Shown here: positions 36,650-51,581 of the stretch, one piece after another
Position numbering within the stretch: position 1 is the first letter of the stretch
Layout of the letters: every line of letters begins with the position of its first letter
Virus record (IMG/VR): IMGVR_UViG_3300044712_000786
Span: 32,001-96,000 of that record
DNA length: 64,000 nt
Source of the DNA: a virus
Lineage: Duplodnaviria > Caudoviricetes
Strand: one strand, 5' to 3'
Translations under genes and position numbers: made by a program
The notes under the pieces: generated by a model
What the model was told of the DNA's origin: nothing
Databases searched by the model: none
Seen by the model: the letters and a program-made list of their open reading frames with translations, nothing else

Positions 36650-37727
36650 TGAATACTTCTCCCCTAGACAGGCCGAATATTCTAGCTTTTGTTTCATCAA
36701 GGGCGGATAGTTTCTCTATTTCGTCGCCCAGAAGTCTTTTTCTTTCTTCCGCATACTCTATAAGTCTCTTTCGTCCCTCTTCCTCTTTCCATACTTGGAC
36801 TAAATTAAGGACAGTCGCGTTTTCTTTAATTTGGTCTTGTATTCTCTGACTGCGTTCTTCAGTTAAAGCCTTAAATAGCTTCTGCTGGCGTTGCACGCTA
36901 GAATTGTGCTCCGTTCGGGCAACATTAATAGCTTCTACTAACTGCATGGACATTTTTCCACCCTCTTGGACTATTTTAGTCTGCTCATTTTGAAGCATAT
37001 TAATAGTTCTTTGAATGCTAGAGGCCATAACAACTTCCGTGCATAGCATAATATACTGGTCTATATCTTCCTTAGTAAGGTCGGGCTTATCAAAGGTATA
37101 TTTAATAAAGCTGCTTTCAAATAGTTCCCTGTCTGACTTAGTATCATAGGTTTCCATCTGATATACGAACCTGAAATCATGGAGGTAAGTCATCAGAGAT
37201 TCTATCTCTTTTCTTATCTTAGTAGATATGGTTTTGTAGTCGTAATTACAGCCATGAACATATTTATTAACTCTCGCAACTGCCCTATCTATAGTATTGG
37301 GGGCTTTATATTCGGCTTCAACTGAATTAGGGTCCTCGAAAGGAGAAACTCCCTCTAAGTTTTTAATAAACGATAATACTAACTTGACTTCCGAATGTAA
37401 ATTAGTTAGATTGGGATTATTAAATAAGATTTGGGCTATCTCGAAAGCCTTCATCGTCTGACAGTTATTCTTAATATATTCTTCCTGCTCGGGGGTTAGG
37501 GTAATAGCTGGTTTAACGATGGGCGCAGATTGATTTTTAGGAACTATTTTTCTCTCCGCAAGAAAGCTCTTAATAAGTCTTGCGTGTTTGGTAGTTCCCT
37601 TGTCGCTAACATCAGGTCCGAAAGCCAGACGAATTAACTCTGAAATAGATGGAGGGTCATAAGGTCTATTATTCCACTCGTCTAGGATTTTTTGCTTCTG
37701 TTCGTCTGTTAATGTTAATTCGCTCAT
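36642..37727 (-). CDS. Hypothetical protein in packaging operon (small terminase candidate by position only)
   Basis: HTH-like N-terminus, coiled-coil C-terminus, two genes upstream of terL. Confidence 0.4.
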   Translation of the reverse strand: MSELTLTDEQKQKILDEWNNRPYDPPSISELIRLAFGPDVSDKGTTKHARLIKSFLAERKIVPKNQSAPIVKPAITLTPEQEEYIKNNCQTMKAFEIAQILFNNPNLTNLHSEVKLVLSFIKNLEGVSPFEDPNSVEAEYKAPNTIDRAVARVNKYVHGCNYDYKTISTKIRKEIESLMTYLHDFRFVYQMETYDTKSDRELFESSFIKYTFDKPDLTKEDIDQYIMLCTEVVMASSIQRTINMLQNEQTKIVQEGGKMSMQLVEAINVARTEHNSSVQRQQKLFKALTEERSQRIQDQIKENATVLNLVQVWKEEEGRKRLIEYAEERKRLLGDEIEKLSALDETKARIFGLSRGEVFNG

Positions 37728-38416
37728 AGAATATCTATTTCGCCTCTATTTAAGCTTTCTTTTACCTTCTTCATAATCGTCTTTCGAAGGTTTTTAATCT
37801 GTTTGTAACCGGGAGCGCGATGTTTTTCTGAAGTTTTAAAGCCCATAATTGCCGCCGCTTCTTCTTCGCTCTTATGCTCAATAAATAAGAGCTTGTAACA
37901 TTTCCACTCCGAAGGCTTTAGAATCTCTTCCATTCTTTTGTGAATATTGGGGGCGGTCCTTTCTATATCTATAGTATCTTCGTAACGGTTGAACACTTCT
38001 TGAGTATGATTGTCTAATGGGACTGGCAACTTAGTATCATAGGCACGCTTTTTAGTCTTTTCCCATCTAGCATAAAGAGGACAAGTAGAGCATTGCTTAG
38101 TGTATATGTTGCATAAGTCATCCCCTTCCGCAGCAGCACATTTTAAGCATGGCCTTGAGAAGTTATAATACATATTCCTAATCAAGTTCTTAATTTGACT
38201 AGAAATAACGGTATTAATCCAAGGGGCTAAGGGTCTGCTGGCATCATAAAGATGCCACTTCTTAAATATATGTATCCTAAGGATTTGCGCAACATCATCG
38301 AAATCGAACCAAGATAACGCCGTCAGGGTCCAACGGCTCTTGCGCTTATTTATTTCGTTATCTATCTCCCCGATATGCTCTTCGAAAAGGGGAGCATTTT
38401 TTTTGCGTCGGGGCAT
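37724..38416 (-). CDS. Phage RNA polymerase sigma factor (ECF-like) with Cys-rich insert
   Basis: Region 2 DFDDVAQILRIHIFKKWHLYD...PWINTVISSQIKNLIR; region 4-like helices SEWKCYKLLFIEHKSEEEAAAIMG; CLKC...C...CSTC insert. Confidence 0.7.
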   Translation of the reverse strand: MPRRKKNAPLFEEHIGEIDNEINKRKSRWTLTALSWFDFDDVAQILRIHIFKKWHLYDASRPLAPWINTVISSQIKNLIRNMYYNFSRPCLKCAAAEGDDLCNIYTKQCSTCPLYARWEKTKKRAYDTKLPVPLDNHTQEVFNRYEDTIDIERTAPNIHKRMEEILKPSEWKCYKLLFIEHKSEEEAAAIMGFKTSEKHRAPGYKQIKNLRKTIMKKVKESLNRGEIDIL

Positions 38417-39947: not shown

Positions 39948-40101
39948 ATAGTAAGAACCACAATAGATTACACTAGAGACACTTTCGAATAAAAAAATCG
40001 GTTAAAATCTACTTTAAATTTCACAAAATCACTTATCTATTTTAATTTAATCGTGCTTTTGTAAGATTGACAAGATTTAAAACTATTCCTAGAATTAGGT
40101 T

Positions 40102-40311
40102 ATGGATGCAGCAGAAAGAGTTAAAAAGCTGTTCGAGCAAGCAAAAACAATAGGTCTTCCTTTTCCTTCGGCGGGAATGATAGAGGATTCTATAAGAGAC
40201 GCGGAATGGGACGCTCTGTATAAACCATTGGAAGTGTCTCAATATCACCACGTTAAACCTCATTTTATGAAGGAAGTATGGAAACGAGCAAACGAAAAAG
40301 TGGAAGTTTAA
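40102..40311 (+). CDS. Hypothetical protein
   Basis: ORF at the start of the + strand block. Confidence 0.5.
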   Translation: MDAAERVKKLFEQAKTIGLPFPSAGMIEDSIRDAEWDALYKPLEVSQYHHVKPHFMKEVWKRANEKVEV

Positions 40312-40514
40312 TAACGGAACTAATATTCATCCTTATAGGATTTGGCTTATTATTCCTAAAACTATGGTTTCCCATCCCTTGGTTGGTTATCCTAGCGGTG
40401 GCGACATTCCCAATGTGGTTTGGTTGGCTCTTTGCCATTAGCGCTTTTATTTTATCGTTGCTCGCCGCTTTCTTAGGCGGGGTTTTAATCTGGATTTTTG
40501 GAAAAAGCAAATGA
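40278..40514 (+). CDS. Small membrane protein (2 TM segments)
   Basis: Two hydrophobic stretches. Confidence 0.55.
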   Translation: METSKRKSGSLITELIFILIGFGLLFLKLWFPIPWLVILAVATFPMWFGWLFAISAFILSLLAAFLGGVLIWIFGKSK

Positions 40515-41083
40515 CCCTACAGGACAGAATTGACAATTACGTTGCCGAGACTGGGTTTCCTAGAACTTTATTTTTAGGAGAAGATGGGCGTCTAGTCGGC
40601 ACTTGGGTTATGGGAAATAACTATCATGTCACAACTAGCTATTATGGAGGTTATCCTCACGGTTACTTAAAACGAATTAAGGCAATGTTTCCCGATAAAC
40701 GGAACGTGCTTCATCTTTTTTCGGGCAAGGTAGACACGAAAATTATTCCCGGTCAAACAGTTGATATAAATGATACAAACAAAGCCGATTATGTAGACGA
40801 TGCCCAAGAGTTAACAAGCGTACCTCTGGAACTCTTCGACCTTGTTTTAGCTGACCCCCCTTACTCCGTAGAGGACTGCGACCACTACCAAACTACGATG
40901 ATTAAACGGAACAAGGTAATGGACGCTCTAGGGCGCAGACTTTCAACTAAAGCTCATGTTGTTTGGCTTGACCAAGTACTTCCAATGTATCGTAAAACAG
41001 ATTTCGATATGGTAGGCGTTATCGGTATGGTAAAGTCTACAAACCATCGTTTTCGAGTAATAACTATTTTTCAAAAAAAATAA
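40511..41083 (+). CDS. Amino-methyltransferase (N6-A/N4-C DNA MTase-like)
   Basis: LHLFSGK motif I, TVDIN, DLVLADPPY motif IV. Confidence 0.75.
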   Translation: MTLQDRIDNYVAETGFPRTLFLGEDGRLVGTWVMGNNYHVTTSYYGGYPHGYLKRIKAMFPDKRNVLHLFSGKVDTKIIPGQTVDINDTNKADYVDDAQELTSVPLELFDLVLADPPYSVEDCDHYQTTMIKRNKVMDALGRRLSTKAHVVWLDQVLPMYRKTDFDMVGVIGMVKSTNHRFRVITIFQKK

Positions 41084-41269
41084 ATGACTACTATAACTTG
41101 CGACCTTTGTAAAAGTAAAATAAATGGACAACCCATCAAAGTTATTATGCGCGATGGCGAACACCCGCATAATGGCTCAACTATGTATACTACAGTTGAT
41201 TGCTGCGATTTCTGTATTCGGAAGCTTCCTCTAGAATGTAACGCGGAAGTAGACGATTATAAACAATAA
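41084..41269 (+). CDS. Small zinc-finger protein
   Basis: CDLC...CCDFC. Confidence 0.5.
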   Translation: MTTITCDLCKSKINGQPIKVIMRDGEHPHNGSTMYTTVDCCDFCIRKLPLECNAEVDDYKQ

Positions 41270-41270
41270 T

Positions 41271-41456
41271 ATGTATACCCTATATTTCAAGCATGAAGGG
41301 AATTGGTATCATTACGCCACTTTTGACGGTAGCGAAATTCCTAAATATGTAGAGTTTATAAAAGTAGATAAAAAAACTAAATTTAGATTAGTCAAGACTG
41401 AGCTTCTGGTTGAGGGGACGGCTGAACGGGTTGCGAAGACTTTAAGCGAGCTTTAA
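41271..41456 (+). CDS. Hypothetical protein
   Basis: ORF in a tightly packed operon. Confidence 0.45.
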   Translation: MYTLYFKHEGNWYHYATFDGSEIPKYVEFIKVDKKTKFRLVKTELLVEGTAERVAKTLSEL

Positions 41457-41682
41457 CGATATACTTTTCCTTGATTTGCTTTAATAAATCTGGATGTGCG
41501 GCTTGCCATTTCTTAGCATTACTTACGTAACGTTCTTTATTCTGTTGATAATGAGATTTCTGGCGTGCATCTTGACAAGACTTACAATCATATCTCAGTC
41601 CATCTTTAGTAGCCGACTGTTTACGAAATTCGCTAATAGGCTTTTCAACTTTGCATTTGGAACAAGTTTTCAATATATCCAT
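41392..41682 (-). CDS. Zinc finger of the type fused to HNH/endonuclease VII enzymes, without a nuclease domain
   Basis: KTCSKCKVEKPISEF...DGLRYDCKSC; GTGTAAT 8 nt upstream. Confidence 0.6.
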   Translation of the reverse strand: MDILKTCSKCKVEKPISEFRKQSATKDGLRYDCKSCQDARQKSHYQQNKERYVSNAKKWQAAHPDLLKQIKEKYIVKARLKSSQPVQPSPQPEAQS

Positions 41683-41725
41683 ATAGATAGATTACACACA
41701 ATTAAGGATTTTTGAAAAATTATTT

Positions 41726-43714
41726 ATGAATGAAGATGTCAAATTTTCTGATACGGGCGAAGCTCACCTTCACCCTAATACAGACTGCCCTTATGCTGGA
41801 GACTGTCTAGTGGAAATAACCGATGGCCAAGAAAAATATGTCTATTGCGAGGGGTGCGATAAGACTTGGAACGTAAAAGAACTTAAAACTATATGAGACC
41901 AGTCCATAACTCAATTGTCTTCTTTAATAGAACTCTTTATAGACAATACCCAATGACCTTCGATTGCCGCAAAATTCTTAACGAACATATGGAATCTAAA
42001 GTAATCCCCCTACATAATAGGTTTGACAAAGAGGGATTTTTACAACTACCTAATTATGGGAAATTGTCTGGGATTTTTGAAAATAAGCTATGAAACAACA
42101 ACGCTCTCGCATTTTTCCAGAAGTGTTTGATATAGTAGGAGGTAATCGAAACTACGCGTTAATCCGTAGTAATATAAGAATGCTCGTATTTAATTTTCGT
42201 TATCAGGATACAATTAATATAGCTAACAATATCATGGACACTTATAAATATGAATAAGGTTAGCCACCACTTCTTTAATCAATTTAATATAGGCGAGTTA
42301 ATGCGAATAAGGGCCTTAGCCAATCATCTTGATTTCATTGAGAGAGGATTTCCAACTTATGGTTTCGCGGCGGTTATTAAAAACAATTTAGCTCATTGTC
42401 GTTTTGTAGATTTTTGAAAAATACCTTTATGAAGAGTGTCACCCACCTTATCGATGATAACTTTTTTTCATTATTAGAAAATAATGTTCGACATAGTTGT
42501 ATCGACAATGTCCGAGTTAATATGAGGTTTCTTGTTTTTAACAGGGGTCAAAGAATGACGGACAGTATCAGTATGGTTATTTATGAAGGGTATGATTTTT
42601 GAAATATGAAATCCGTAGCTGTCCAAGTTCGCTTGCCTCATTTAGACGTTGATTGTGATTGCATGTGGGAATCTGTATACTATAACATAGAAATAAAATT
42701 AGCTCGTATAGCAAGACTAAGAGACCCGATAAGATTTGGGTTGGAAGAGATTTTTGAAAAATATGAATAGTGTCGGGTTCACATTTGATAGCTTCACAAT
42801 CCAAATGCTTTTCAGTGCTAATGTCAAATACTCTTTTGCTAACAGTAATATATTTGGGACTTTTACTCTTGCCCTGAATATAAAGCATAATTTAAAGGGT
42901 CTATATGAAGAAAATTAAACGCACTTTAGGACCCCACGGTTCCCCTCTTTCTTATCTATTATCCTATCCTCAATGGTTAATATTCGAGAACTACATGGAC
43001 AAGCATTCTTTCAGACCTAATAGAATATTCTACTTAAATCCGTGCGGTTTTCTAAAGTTTGATTATAATGCGATAGATTTTTGAAAAATAACTATGAATG
43101 AATTAGCCCCCCATTTTAATGATTTTATGACTTTCAGTATGGATATTACTGCGCCTGCAATCAACTCAAACCTTGTTTTTGATTCATATAATATGGCGTT
43201 TAATATAAAGTATGATATATGGCTAGATGATAATGTCTATGATGAAGTAAACCTAAATGAACTTTTAATGTGGGAAAATATAGACCATGATTTTTGAAAC
43301 ATGAATAGTTTAAGAGCCCCCCTTGACCATTTCATAACCGACATAATTCAACGCCAGCTAGTCTATCCCTATCCTTTTTTCTATGGCTTTGCCTCTTATG
43401 GAACGGCTGCAATCTTTCGTTTAAATCTAGCTCTACACGCTTATAACGAAATAGGAGACATCGATATATCAAGATTTGCTCCTTTGTCTCTTACCTCTAT
43501 TCCCAGTGGTTTAGACGTTGATGATTTTTGAAAAATTACTATGAATAGATTGCGCGACCATTTTCTCACCTTCGTCCATCACACTCTTATACATAAACCC
43601 ATTTCTTCCGAAGTTTCTTTCACTGGATTTATGTCTTATATGAACGCTTTGACTATTAAGGTTTCATTGTATCGATACGTAAGGAATAGAGATAAAGTAT
43701 TGTTGGATTTTTGA
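41726..43714 (+). other. Array of 11 translationally coupled micro-ORFs (51-76 aa)
   Basis: ORFs at 41726-41896, 41893-42093, 42090-42257, 42250-42417, 42429-42602, 42606-42770, 42763-42918, 42905-43084, 43094-43297, 43301-43531, 43541-43714; six end in D-F-stop. Confidence 0.7.
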
Positions 43715-43724
43715 AACTTACTGA

Positions 43725-43749
43725 ACGGGAATATACCGTCCCGTTTTTT
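43725..43749 (+). terminator. Intrinsic terminator ending the + strand block
   Basis: ACGGGA-ATATACCG-TCCCGT-TTTTT. Confidence 0.7.
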
Positions 43750-43899
43750 CTATATTAAGCGATGTTGTTCCCTAGCGGGAATATTAAGCGAGATTTTTGA
43801 AAAGTTTATTAAAATGTCTTTTTTGGTGCAACATATGAGAGTATACGTAAATACATATATTTATGTATAGATTTTTGAAAATATCTAGTTTAGTGAAAA

Positions 43900-44000
43900 G
43901 GGGTGGAGTGAAGTCAAGCACCCCCCCCGCCCATATAAATTTCGCTAATGGGCATTTTTTCAAAAACACCCCCCCTACTGGCCCCTCCCCCGTCATTAGA
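43900..44000. other. Non-coding C-tract island at the convergence of + and - transcription
   Basis: Homopolymer C tracts near 43920, 43969 and 43983, an inverted TTTTTGAAA at 43958-43966, flanked by opposing terminators. Confidence 0.6.
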
Positions 44001-44016
44001 CAAACTAATATTTGAA

Positions 44017-44045
44017 TTAAAAAAAAGGGAGCATAAGCTCCCATA
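44017..44045 (-). terminator. Intrinsic terminator
   Basis: GGGAGC-TTAT-GCTCCC then T run on the - strand. Confidence 0.7.
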
Positions 44046-51336: not shown

Positions 51337-51581
51337 ATAGTCAACAATATAGAGTTTTTTCTAATTGTCAACCCATTCATAGAGTAGGGCTAACAACAGA
51401 GCTAATATGAGAATTTCCACGATGTTTGGGGCATTTAGCATAAGGTGCGGAATCTGCCCCGCACGTTTGGCATTTACCTTGCGCCTTTTTACGCAACTGA
51501 TACTTGCGTTGACGGGAGATTTTCAAAAATCTTATTTGGTCTCTTATCATGTGTAAATTCTATTGGTTTTTTACTAACTTG

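Follow-up and report, generated by a model that had tools for sequence, protein, structure and literature searches.

What could keep an 11-bp word unchanged through eleven closely set copies in a phage genome? The word, GATTTTTGAAA, is found in an uncultured soil phage (IMG/VR record IMGVR_UViG_3300044712_000786; 202,704 bp, 39% GC), of which we analyzed a window of 64,000 nucleotides comprising record bases 32001-96000. Coordinates refer to this window unless marked as genome positions. Eleven copies lie on the + strand within 2.2 kb (41707-43880), set among eleven very small genes. The word is probably a cis-acting site that controls the transcription of these genes, as either an operator or a promoter. 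The interpretation that we tentatively favor is an oriented operator or stoperator-like site recognized by a DNA-binding protein that the phage encodes.

The window holds 15 exact copies of the word, whereas 0.21 are expected and the maximum among 100 shuffled sequences was one. A strand-resolved map of the genome yields 16 copies. Eleven of these fall in the array, which represents 1.1% of the genome, and thus the word is not equally frequent elsewhere; the other five lie on mixed strands. On this distribution we reject a translocase signal of the KOPS or Chi type, one of several functions suggested in an earlier reading of the DNA (hereafter the sequence-only reading). The eleven same-strand copies and the gaps between them that it had described are correct, with copies beginning at 41707, 42072, 42409, 42594, 42749, 43076, 43289, 43523, 43706, 43792 and 43870. 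If one mismatch is allowed, the genome carries 52 sites and no second cluster. The consensus can be extended to GATTTTTGAAAaaT, in which positions 12-14 are partly kept (A in 8/11, A in 7/11 and T in 9/11 copies). The word is AT-rich, its sequence permits no stable hairpin of its own, and neither flanking inverted repeats nor an attC-like inverted-repeat structure surrounds it.

All eleven copies are co-oriented with the local transcription unit, and eight of them sit immediately 5' of a start codon, a placement absent from the sequence-only reading. Copies 1 to 8 (41707-41717, 42072-42082, 42409-42419, 42594-42604, 42749-42759, 43076-43086, 43289-43299 and 43523-43533) precede the ATGs at 41726, 42090, 42429, 42606, 42763, 43094, 43301 and 43541 by 8, 7, 9, 1, 3, 7, 1 and 7 nt, respectively. 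The sites occupy minimal intergenic spaces and overlap stop codons. Copies 3, 4, 6, 7, 8 and 9 end the upstream gene with D-F-stop (genes 42250, 42429, 42905, 43094, 43301 and 43541), whereas the genes 41893 and 42606 read copies 2 and 5 as I-F-E. Copy 9 (43706-43716) closes the last gene of the array, has the form GATTTTTGAAACTT and is followed 6 nt later by a terminator, whose hairpin and T run occupy 43723-43746. Copies 10 (43792-43802) and 11 (43870-43880) are non-coding and lie past this terminator. An 18-codon open reading frame (ORF) at 43813-43869 begins 10 nt after copy 10 and has its stop at the first base of copy 11. It is laid out like the genes of the array and may be a nascent or decaying unit.

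These readings indicate that selection acts on the nucleotides of the word rather than on a peptide. In addition to the six D-F-stop and two I-F-E readings in the array, the word is read as R-F-L-K, in a third frame, at 51521 and is non-coding in three places. All six D-F-stop endings are spelled GAT-TTT-TGA, for which genome codon usage predicts a frequency of 0.127 each, giving P ~4e-6. Apart from the word, no nucleotide similarity connects the units, and thus its exactness reflects selection and not recent copying. The sequence-only reading had likewise placed the constraint on the DNA, and it had correctly noted the six GAT TTT TGA endings, the two I-F-E readings and the position of the last two copies beyond the terminator.

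The word is also retained in relatives of this phage. Scans of viral and metagenome contigs with 14-mer, 17-mer and gapped patterns returned mostly chance matches or tandem repeats of unrelated viruses, and the only true relatives with the element are G001 (L194/L262) and L219/L257. Relatives reached through a 190-aa methyltransferase-like protein (L123-L132) or TerL (L133-L186) have no motif array, the ArdC-like protein as query retrieved no loci, and a blastn search of the region against phage sequences in GenBank gave no match.

What the three phages share is a divergent gene beside the word. In the window this gene (41392-41682, - strand) starts next to copy 1 and codes for a 96-aa zinc-ribbon protein. 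Phage HNH and endonuclease VII proteins have a matching domain as their N-terminal module, but the nuclease part is absent here. A promoter word, GTGTAAT (41691-41697, - strand), is located 8 nt upstream of its ATG. In the window and the two relatives the 11-bp word ends 24, 24 and 23 nt from the zinc-ribbon start codon, across the -35 region, with the G001 copy being a degenerate T6A5 version. The sequence between the word and the start codon has diverged across the phages, and the -10 differs as well (TGTAAT versus TATAAT). More distant zinc-ribbon homologues have unrelated upstream regions and lack the arrangement.

The 172-kb relative G001 (L194) is syntenic, with sigma factor and PhoH genes and a 95-aa zinc-ribbon gene whose product is 41% identical. 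There the zinc-ribbon gene is followed by a class I promoter (described below) that drives a gene for a 376-aa AAA ATPase and an 81-aa gene, and then by an AT-rich non-coding junction. This junction includes three exact, co-oriented copies (GATTTTTGAAAC) after a terminator-like hairpin, together with C/G tracts and a - strand terminator. Copy 9 of the window, in its GATTTTTGAAACTT form, matches these G001 copies and shares the CTT that follows them. None of the 13 copies in G001 lies within 25 nt before a gene. The 11-kb relative L219 (also L257) has two TATTTTTGAAAA copies, 36 nt apart, directly beside the zinc-ribbon gene and at approximately +5 and +41 of a sigma-70-like rightward promoter, which are operator positions. 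The junction copies of both relatives are non-coding and co-oriented with the local unit. Elsewhere in G001, a 700-nt AT-rich non-coding stretch (97500-98200; L206) has two motif-like copies on the same strand, TATTTTTGAAAATG and GATTTTTGAAACAGG.

In the window, the corresponding junction is a non-coding C-tract island (43881-44026) that lies between two opposing terminators and is partly conserved in both relatives (L194 5919-6030 and L219 1085-1193, - strand). About 19-20 nt after the last copy, the element carries GTTTA(A/G), a G run and C tracts (C8, C7 and C4TC5 in the window). The element has no Rfam match. Its RNA fold is not significant in any of the three phages (z -1.8 to +0.5), and thus it probably acts as DNA. 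A G-quadruplex could form on the opposite strand, and the element could be a terminus, a pac site or an origin.

Such features might indicate that the copies serve a machine acting at the junction, for example as small-terminase (pac) sites, origin iterons, a polar fork barrier or a centromere-like element, with the small genes as filled spacers. The copies are indeed densest beside the junction, those of the relatives are confined to the non-coding junction next to conserved C/G tracts, no structured RNA is predicted downstream, and ArdC-like genes of the anti-restriction type lie just past the junction. However, gene lengths determine the spacings of 78-365 bp, which follow no helical phase; a junction machine would not account for the constant place of the word in the zinc-ribbon promoter, and the terminase gene is about 8 kb away. 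Cumulative GC skew along the genome reaches its extremes at 59.5 and 169.3 kb rather than at the junction (genome 75.9 kb), and the 127-bp repeat at the ends of the record is an assembly overlap, so that physical ends cannot be read from it. Moreover, motif-like copies precede ATGs in a second array of mini-genes about 20 kb from the main one, on the strand of the adjoining genes (an exact copy at genome 98470, 0 nt from the ATG, and copies at genome 97556 and 96894, at 2 and 14 nt). Because the word stands at gene starts in both arrays, a role in expression is favored over a purely local one in packaging or origin activity. We therefore consider a junction machine unlikely.

The sequence-only reading took the ORFs between the copies for mere AT-rich spacers, whereas we judge them to be real genes. 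Eleven ORFs of 51-76 aa tile 41726-43714 head to tail on the + strand, in 2 kb of 34.5% GC where an open frame of at least 51 codons has a chance of about 0.02. Seven of the eleven form a paralogue family (blastp E 1e-5 to 1e-3; shared motif F..Y...A..IK.NL) with identities of at most 34%. A Joint Genome Institute gene call on a second, independent contig, whose array is 99.96% identical, finds the same genes. The tiling of improbable open frames, the paralogy and this independent call together support our judgment.

Eight of the eleven mini-genes are preceded by the word, and the other three (41893, 42250 and 42905) overlap the preceding gene by 4-14 nt. Mini-gene 1 (41726-41896, 56 aa) has a zinc-ribbon-like CxxxxC...CxxC pattern and stands outside the paralogue family. 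Mini-gene 2 (41893-42093, 66 aa) has no upstream word and shares an ATGA overlap with the previous stop. The paralogues are mini-genes 3 (42090-42257, 55 aa), 4 (42250-42417, 55 aa; no upstream word, 8-nt overlap with the previous gene), 5 (42429-42602, 57 aa), 7 (42763-42918, 51 aa), 9 (43094-43297, 67 aa), 10 (43301-43531, 76 aa) and 11 (43541-43714, 57 aa). The array is completed by mini-genes 6 (42606-42770, 54 aa) and 8 (42905-43084, 59 aa), the latter with no upstream word and a 14-nt overlap with the previous gene. The proteins match no Pfam or PHROG family and no homologues were found outside this phage; the product of mini-gene 10 matches only itself among 5.8 billion proteins. An AlphaFold2 model built from the paralogue alignment is helical but of low confidence (predicted local distance difference test score 53), too poor for a fold search. 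Kinship with a family of about 60 mini-genes at 94-104 kb of the genome was considered and is not shown (hmmsearch E 0.2-3; hhalign probability 0.6%), as only the first four to five residues (M-N/K-S-V/L) are common to both.

Mini-genes 5-6 (42429-42770) and 8-11 (42905-43714) lie in a single frame and are parted only by the TGA inside the word, and at four of the five D-F-stop junctions the frame is shared with the next ATG (P ~0.045). UUU UGA after a U run is a textbook shifty stop, and readthrough or frameshift products at the in-frame junctions are conceivable. A change of genetic code that recodes TGA and fuses these genes was rejected, given the coding density of 85% and the 4244-aa ORF obtained with table 11. 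A 73-codon + strand ORF (41494-41715) is antisense to the zinc-ribbon gene and ends with D-F-stop in copy 1. This ORF is probably a shadow frame, but its translation would make the coupled + strand ORFs continuous between 40102 and 43714.

How the mini-genes are transcribed is best judged against the promoters used elsewhere in this phage. Class I promoters (TTGACa, a spacer with an A-tract, TAnnaT, N6, ATG) precede dozens of - strand genes and yield leaderless mRNAs. Class II promoters (GTGTAAT, 7-8 nt, ATG) lack a -35 element, also give leaderless starts, and are common to this phage and G001. They precede late structural genes, including those for the portal (33855) and tape measure (14453) proteins, and the zinc-ribbon gene (41697, - strand). 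The factor that reads class II promoters is plausibly an extracytoplasmic function (ECF)-like sigma factor encoded at 37724-38416. Late genes with leaders carry a Shine-Dalgarno-like word, AAAGG. Nearly all small genes or gene pairs elsewhere in the phage have their own promoter abutting the ATG.

No such signal is present in the array. Between 41700 and 43900 there is no + strand class I match of at least 10/12, the two matches of 9/12 are no more than shuffled sequences give, and a regular-expression promoter map also places no class I promoter there. The array contains no class II word, since the only GTGTAAT of the region is the - strand one of the zinc-ribbon gene, and it contains no Shine-Dalgarno sequence. 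The word itself includes TTGAAA, but manual reading of the flanks revealed no -10 at 16-18 nt. Upstream, the + strand has a single good promoter, a leaderless class I sigma-70 promoter at 40067-40095, which could drive a 3.7-kb polycistronic transcript from 40102 to the intrinsic terminator (43723-43752, + strand; an 8-bp stem and then a T run) that closes the + strand unit. The only other + strand terminator match inside the array, at 42929, is weak. The mini-gene array at 94-104 kb has almost no promoters and has overlapping stops and starts, and such coupled, promoter-poor operons make a polycistronic main array plausible.

A close rival of the operator, which we rate as possible but doubtful, is that the word forms the core of a third promoter class used by the host RNA polymerase with a phage factor, either the ECF-like sigma factor or another protein. 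Transcription would begin in or just after the word, producing leaders of 0-9 nt and nested transcripts that extend to the 43723 terminator. The units composed of the word, a gene and sometimes a coupled gene match the promoter-per-gene design of the adjoining class I region, and every mini-gene that lacks the word overlaps the preceding gene. The array has no class I, class II or Shine-Dalgarno sequences, although leadered late genes of this phage do use AAAGG, and this also fits the proposal. Furthermore, only a promoter explains how the first gene of the array, cut off by the antisense gene, is translated. The copies before ATGs in the second array are consistent with it too, and intergenic repeats of halovirus HF2 have proved to be promoters (PMC8707807). 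The HF2 repeats resemble the word in preceding genes in a host that uses leaderless mRNAs, but they are reporter-tested archaeal promoters of 29-58 bp, whereas the word has 11 bp and belongs to a bacterial phage.

Several observations nevertheless count for the operator over the promoter. The word lies at variable distances from the ATG (1-9 nt), in contrast to the fixed spacing of class I (N6) and class II (N7-8). No phage RNA polymerase able to use an 11-bp promoter was detected in the genome, in which one ECF-like sigma factor is present. Neither manual reading of the flanks nor a sigma-70 pattern scan found -10/-35 elements of sigma-70 geometry beside the copies. In addition, a promoter at copy 9 would transcribe the terminator alone, and in G001 none of the 13 copies precedes a gene even though class II promoters are common to both phages.

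Other matches of the word to known sites were rejected. Leftward promoters of the MotA-box type at every copy are contradicted by the lack of a - strand -10 at constant distance, except at copy 1. The word agrees with the CodY box at 11/15 positions, but the misfit in geometry and context suggests a chance likeness of an AT-rich word. Likenesses to a Hin hix half-site, an UP element, a sigma-32 or ECF -35 (TGAAAC) and to IHF, Fis and DnaA sites also fit poorly and were taken as chance. No Rfam match was better than E 0.8.

The junction copies in relatives, the operator positions in L219 and the fixed place in the divergent promoter all favor a DNA site bound by a protein over an RNA signal or a general promoter class. 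We infer that a protein binds the word and that binding might repress, rather than activate, transcription; the 96-aa zinc-ribbon protein is a candidate for this role. In such an operator model, the + strand block from 40102 to 43714 would be transcribed early from the class I promoter at 40067, and the mini-genes would be translated by stop-start coupling. The regulator, for which the zinc-ribbon protein expressed from its class II (probably late) promoter would be the best candidate, might then bind the sites, which face the oncoming polymerase, and shut off the array gene by gene. Bound sites could also stop read-through into the convergent junction, and the regulator might control its own gene through the divergent promoter that copy 1 overlaps. 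The three junction copies appear ancestral, and the eight gene-start copies probably result from repeated duplication of site-plus-gene units, after which the proteins would have diverged and the site would have been kept unchanged.

The stoperators of cluster A mycobacteriophages (L5 gp71; McGinnis et al. 2022, PMC9283540) are the closest described counterpart of such an operator. They are asymmetric sites of about 13 bp, bound by a monomer, that lie in promoter regions and short intergenic spaces with an orientation that follows transcription. The repressor, with a helix-turn-helix and a stoperator domain, blocks both initiation and elongation (PMC9283540). The word is likewise an asymmetric repeated site in short intergenic spaces and in one divergent promoter, and its orientation follows transcription in the eleven array copies and in the G001 and L219 junctions. 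By analogy, one protein would both autoregulate and block elongation. However, stoperators are found in temperate phages, which have an immunity repressor, and occur genome-wide at about one per 1-2 kb, whereas here about one site per 200 bp is found in a single array. The present phage lacks an integrase, a homologue of the repressor was not identified (without a profile search aimed at one), and the candidate zinc-ribbon protein is unrelated to the stoperator repressor.

Some features also weigh against an operator. Eleven roadblocks in 2.2 kb would be far denser than known stoperators, and a phage that has no integrase and looks lytic offers no logic for an immunity repressor. Translation of mini-gene 41726 is unexplained, as it begins 270 nt past the previous + strand gene with no Shine-Dalgarno sequence and is separated from that gene by the antisense gene; a transcription start near the word would explain it. 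The array also has the same unit structure as the promoter-headed small genes elsewhere in the phage, which favors the promoter. Finally, the zinc-ribbon protein has weak family matches only and no solved relative, and it is no more than a candidate for binding the word.

We regard it as quite improbable that the word instead functions in mRNA as a start-associated element, where a regulator or enhancer of translation would bind or where processing of a polycistronic transcript would release near-leaderless mRNAs. Being AU-rich and without a stable hairpin, such an element would suit ribosome access. The anatomy closely matches that of the start-associated sequences (SAS) of cluster K mycobacteriophages (Pope et al. 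2011, PMC3203893), 13-bp elements (GGGATAGGAGCCC) with an AGGAG Shine-Dalgarno core that are located 3-8 nt before mostly ATG starts, in one orientation and only at non-structural genes. The function of SAS is unproven (PMC3203893). Both are short asymmetric words present in 11-19 copies in one orientation, a few nucleotides before small-gene starts and sometimes with the upstream stop codon inside the word. However, the AT-rich word has neither the GGGATAGGAGCCC consensus nor a Shine-Dalgarno core, and SAS is spread over half a genome whereas 11 of the 16 copies here lie in 2.2 kb. Copies 10 and 11 are past the terminator, copies in G001 and L219 are away from start codons, and the position of copy 1 is conserved relative to an opposite-strand gene and falls outside the mRNA of that gene. 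The retention of the word in non-coding DNA and in the divergent promoter of relatives suggests that it acts as DNA and not in translation. The closest systems described so far are the stoperators and, by anatomy, SAS.

The sequence-only reading had also listed cassette recombination joints, through which mini-genes might be moved, duplicated or deleted in the manner of an integron or of the promoter-early stem-loop elements (PeSLs) of T4-type phages. The same exact word does bound each unit, and an exact copy with the D-F-stop ending is found in the distant array (genome 98470). PeSLs combine a sigma-70 early promoter with a terminator stem-loop in tens of base pairs within hyperplastic regions, and they demonstrate that shuffling can proceed through regulatory repeats (Arbiol et al. 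2010, PMC2839356; Comeau et al. 2014, PMC4122927). Like the word, they are repeated motifs at the borders of small, quickly evolving ORFs of unknown function in a plastic region, and both might act as shuffling joints. The word, however, has 11 bp and lacks promoter hexamers, and the internal junctions carry no stem-loop. Integron-like arrays require a site-specific recombinase and structured attC sites. No attC-like structure is present here, and profile searches of the genome for tyrosine and serine recombinases (PF00589 and PF00239) were negative while positive controls worked. Eleven base pairs are also short for homologous exchange, and the 99.96% identical array of the second sample shows no shuffling. 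A recombination joint is therefore the least credible of the readings considered, and any recombination at the word would more likely be a side effect than its function. Only marginally more credible is that the word and the zinc-ribbon protein build cassettes as a 'gene nursery' that needs no classical recombinase. In this scheme, the junction sites would be landing or duplication points for new mini-genes, the ORF at 43813-43869 might be a nascent example, and any gene born or captured there would fall under this site's control automatically.

The word is most likely a transcription-control site that resembles the repeated start-linked motifs described from other phages, with a new sequence and layout. 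It provides a very clean example of an exact word that is read in several frames and heads a private family of tiny genes, and that in three distantly related phages also has a fixed place both in a divergent promoter and in non-coding junction DNA. Some of the known start-linked or intergenic phage words, such as SAS, still have an open function. If the zinc-ribbon protein binds the word and, in a single orientation, either blocks or initiates transcription, the two would constitute a new regulator-site pair for lytic jumbo phages. An operator would show how phages with leaderless mRNAs switch off blocks of early mini-genes, whereas a promoter would represent a third class without -35/-10 geometry.

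The surrounding genes of the window include tail genes, among them that for the 4244-aa tape measure protein, and - strand genes for the portal, TerL, an ERCC4-type nuclease, the ECF-like sigma factor and PhoH. The short + strand block (40102-43714) that ends in the array faces a long - strand block of small genes from 44047 on, with the gene for the ArdC-like (anti-restriction-type) protein just across the junction and a - strand terminator at 44042-44027. In 45-55 of 61 class I promoters on the - strand between 46000 and 62000, the spacer has AAAA at positions +11 to +14, counted from the first T of TTGACA. This A-tract is absent in relatives; it resembles the A run of the word, and one factor might read both. 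In a further relative with 56% TerL identity (L137 1099-2067, - strand), a leaderless promoter together with the first codons (MNNT...) precedes several unrelated genes, which appears to be another case of copying of a promoter-plus-start module in this group of phages.

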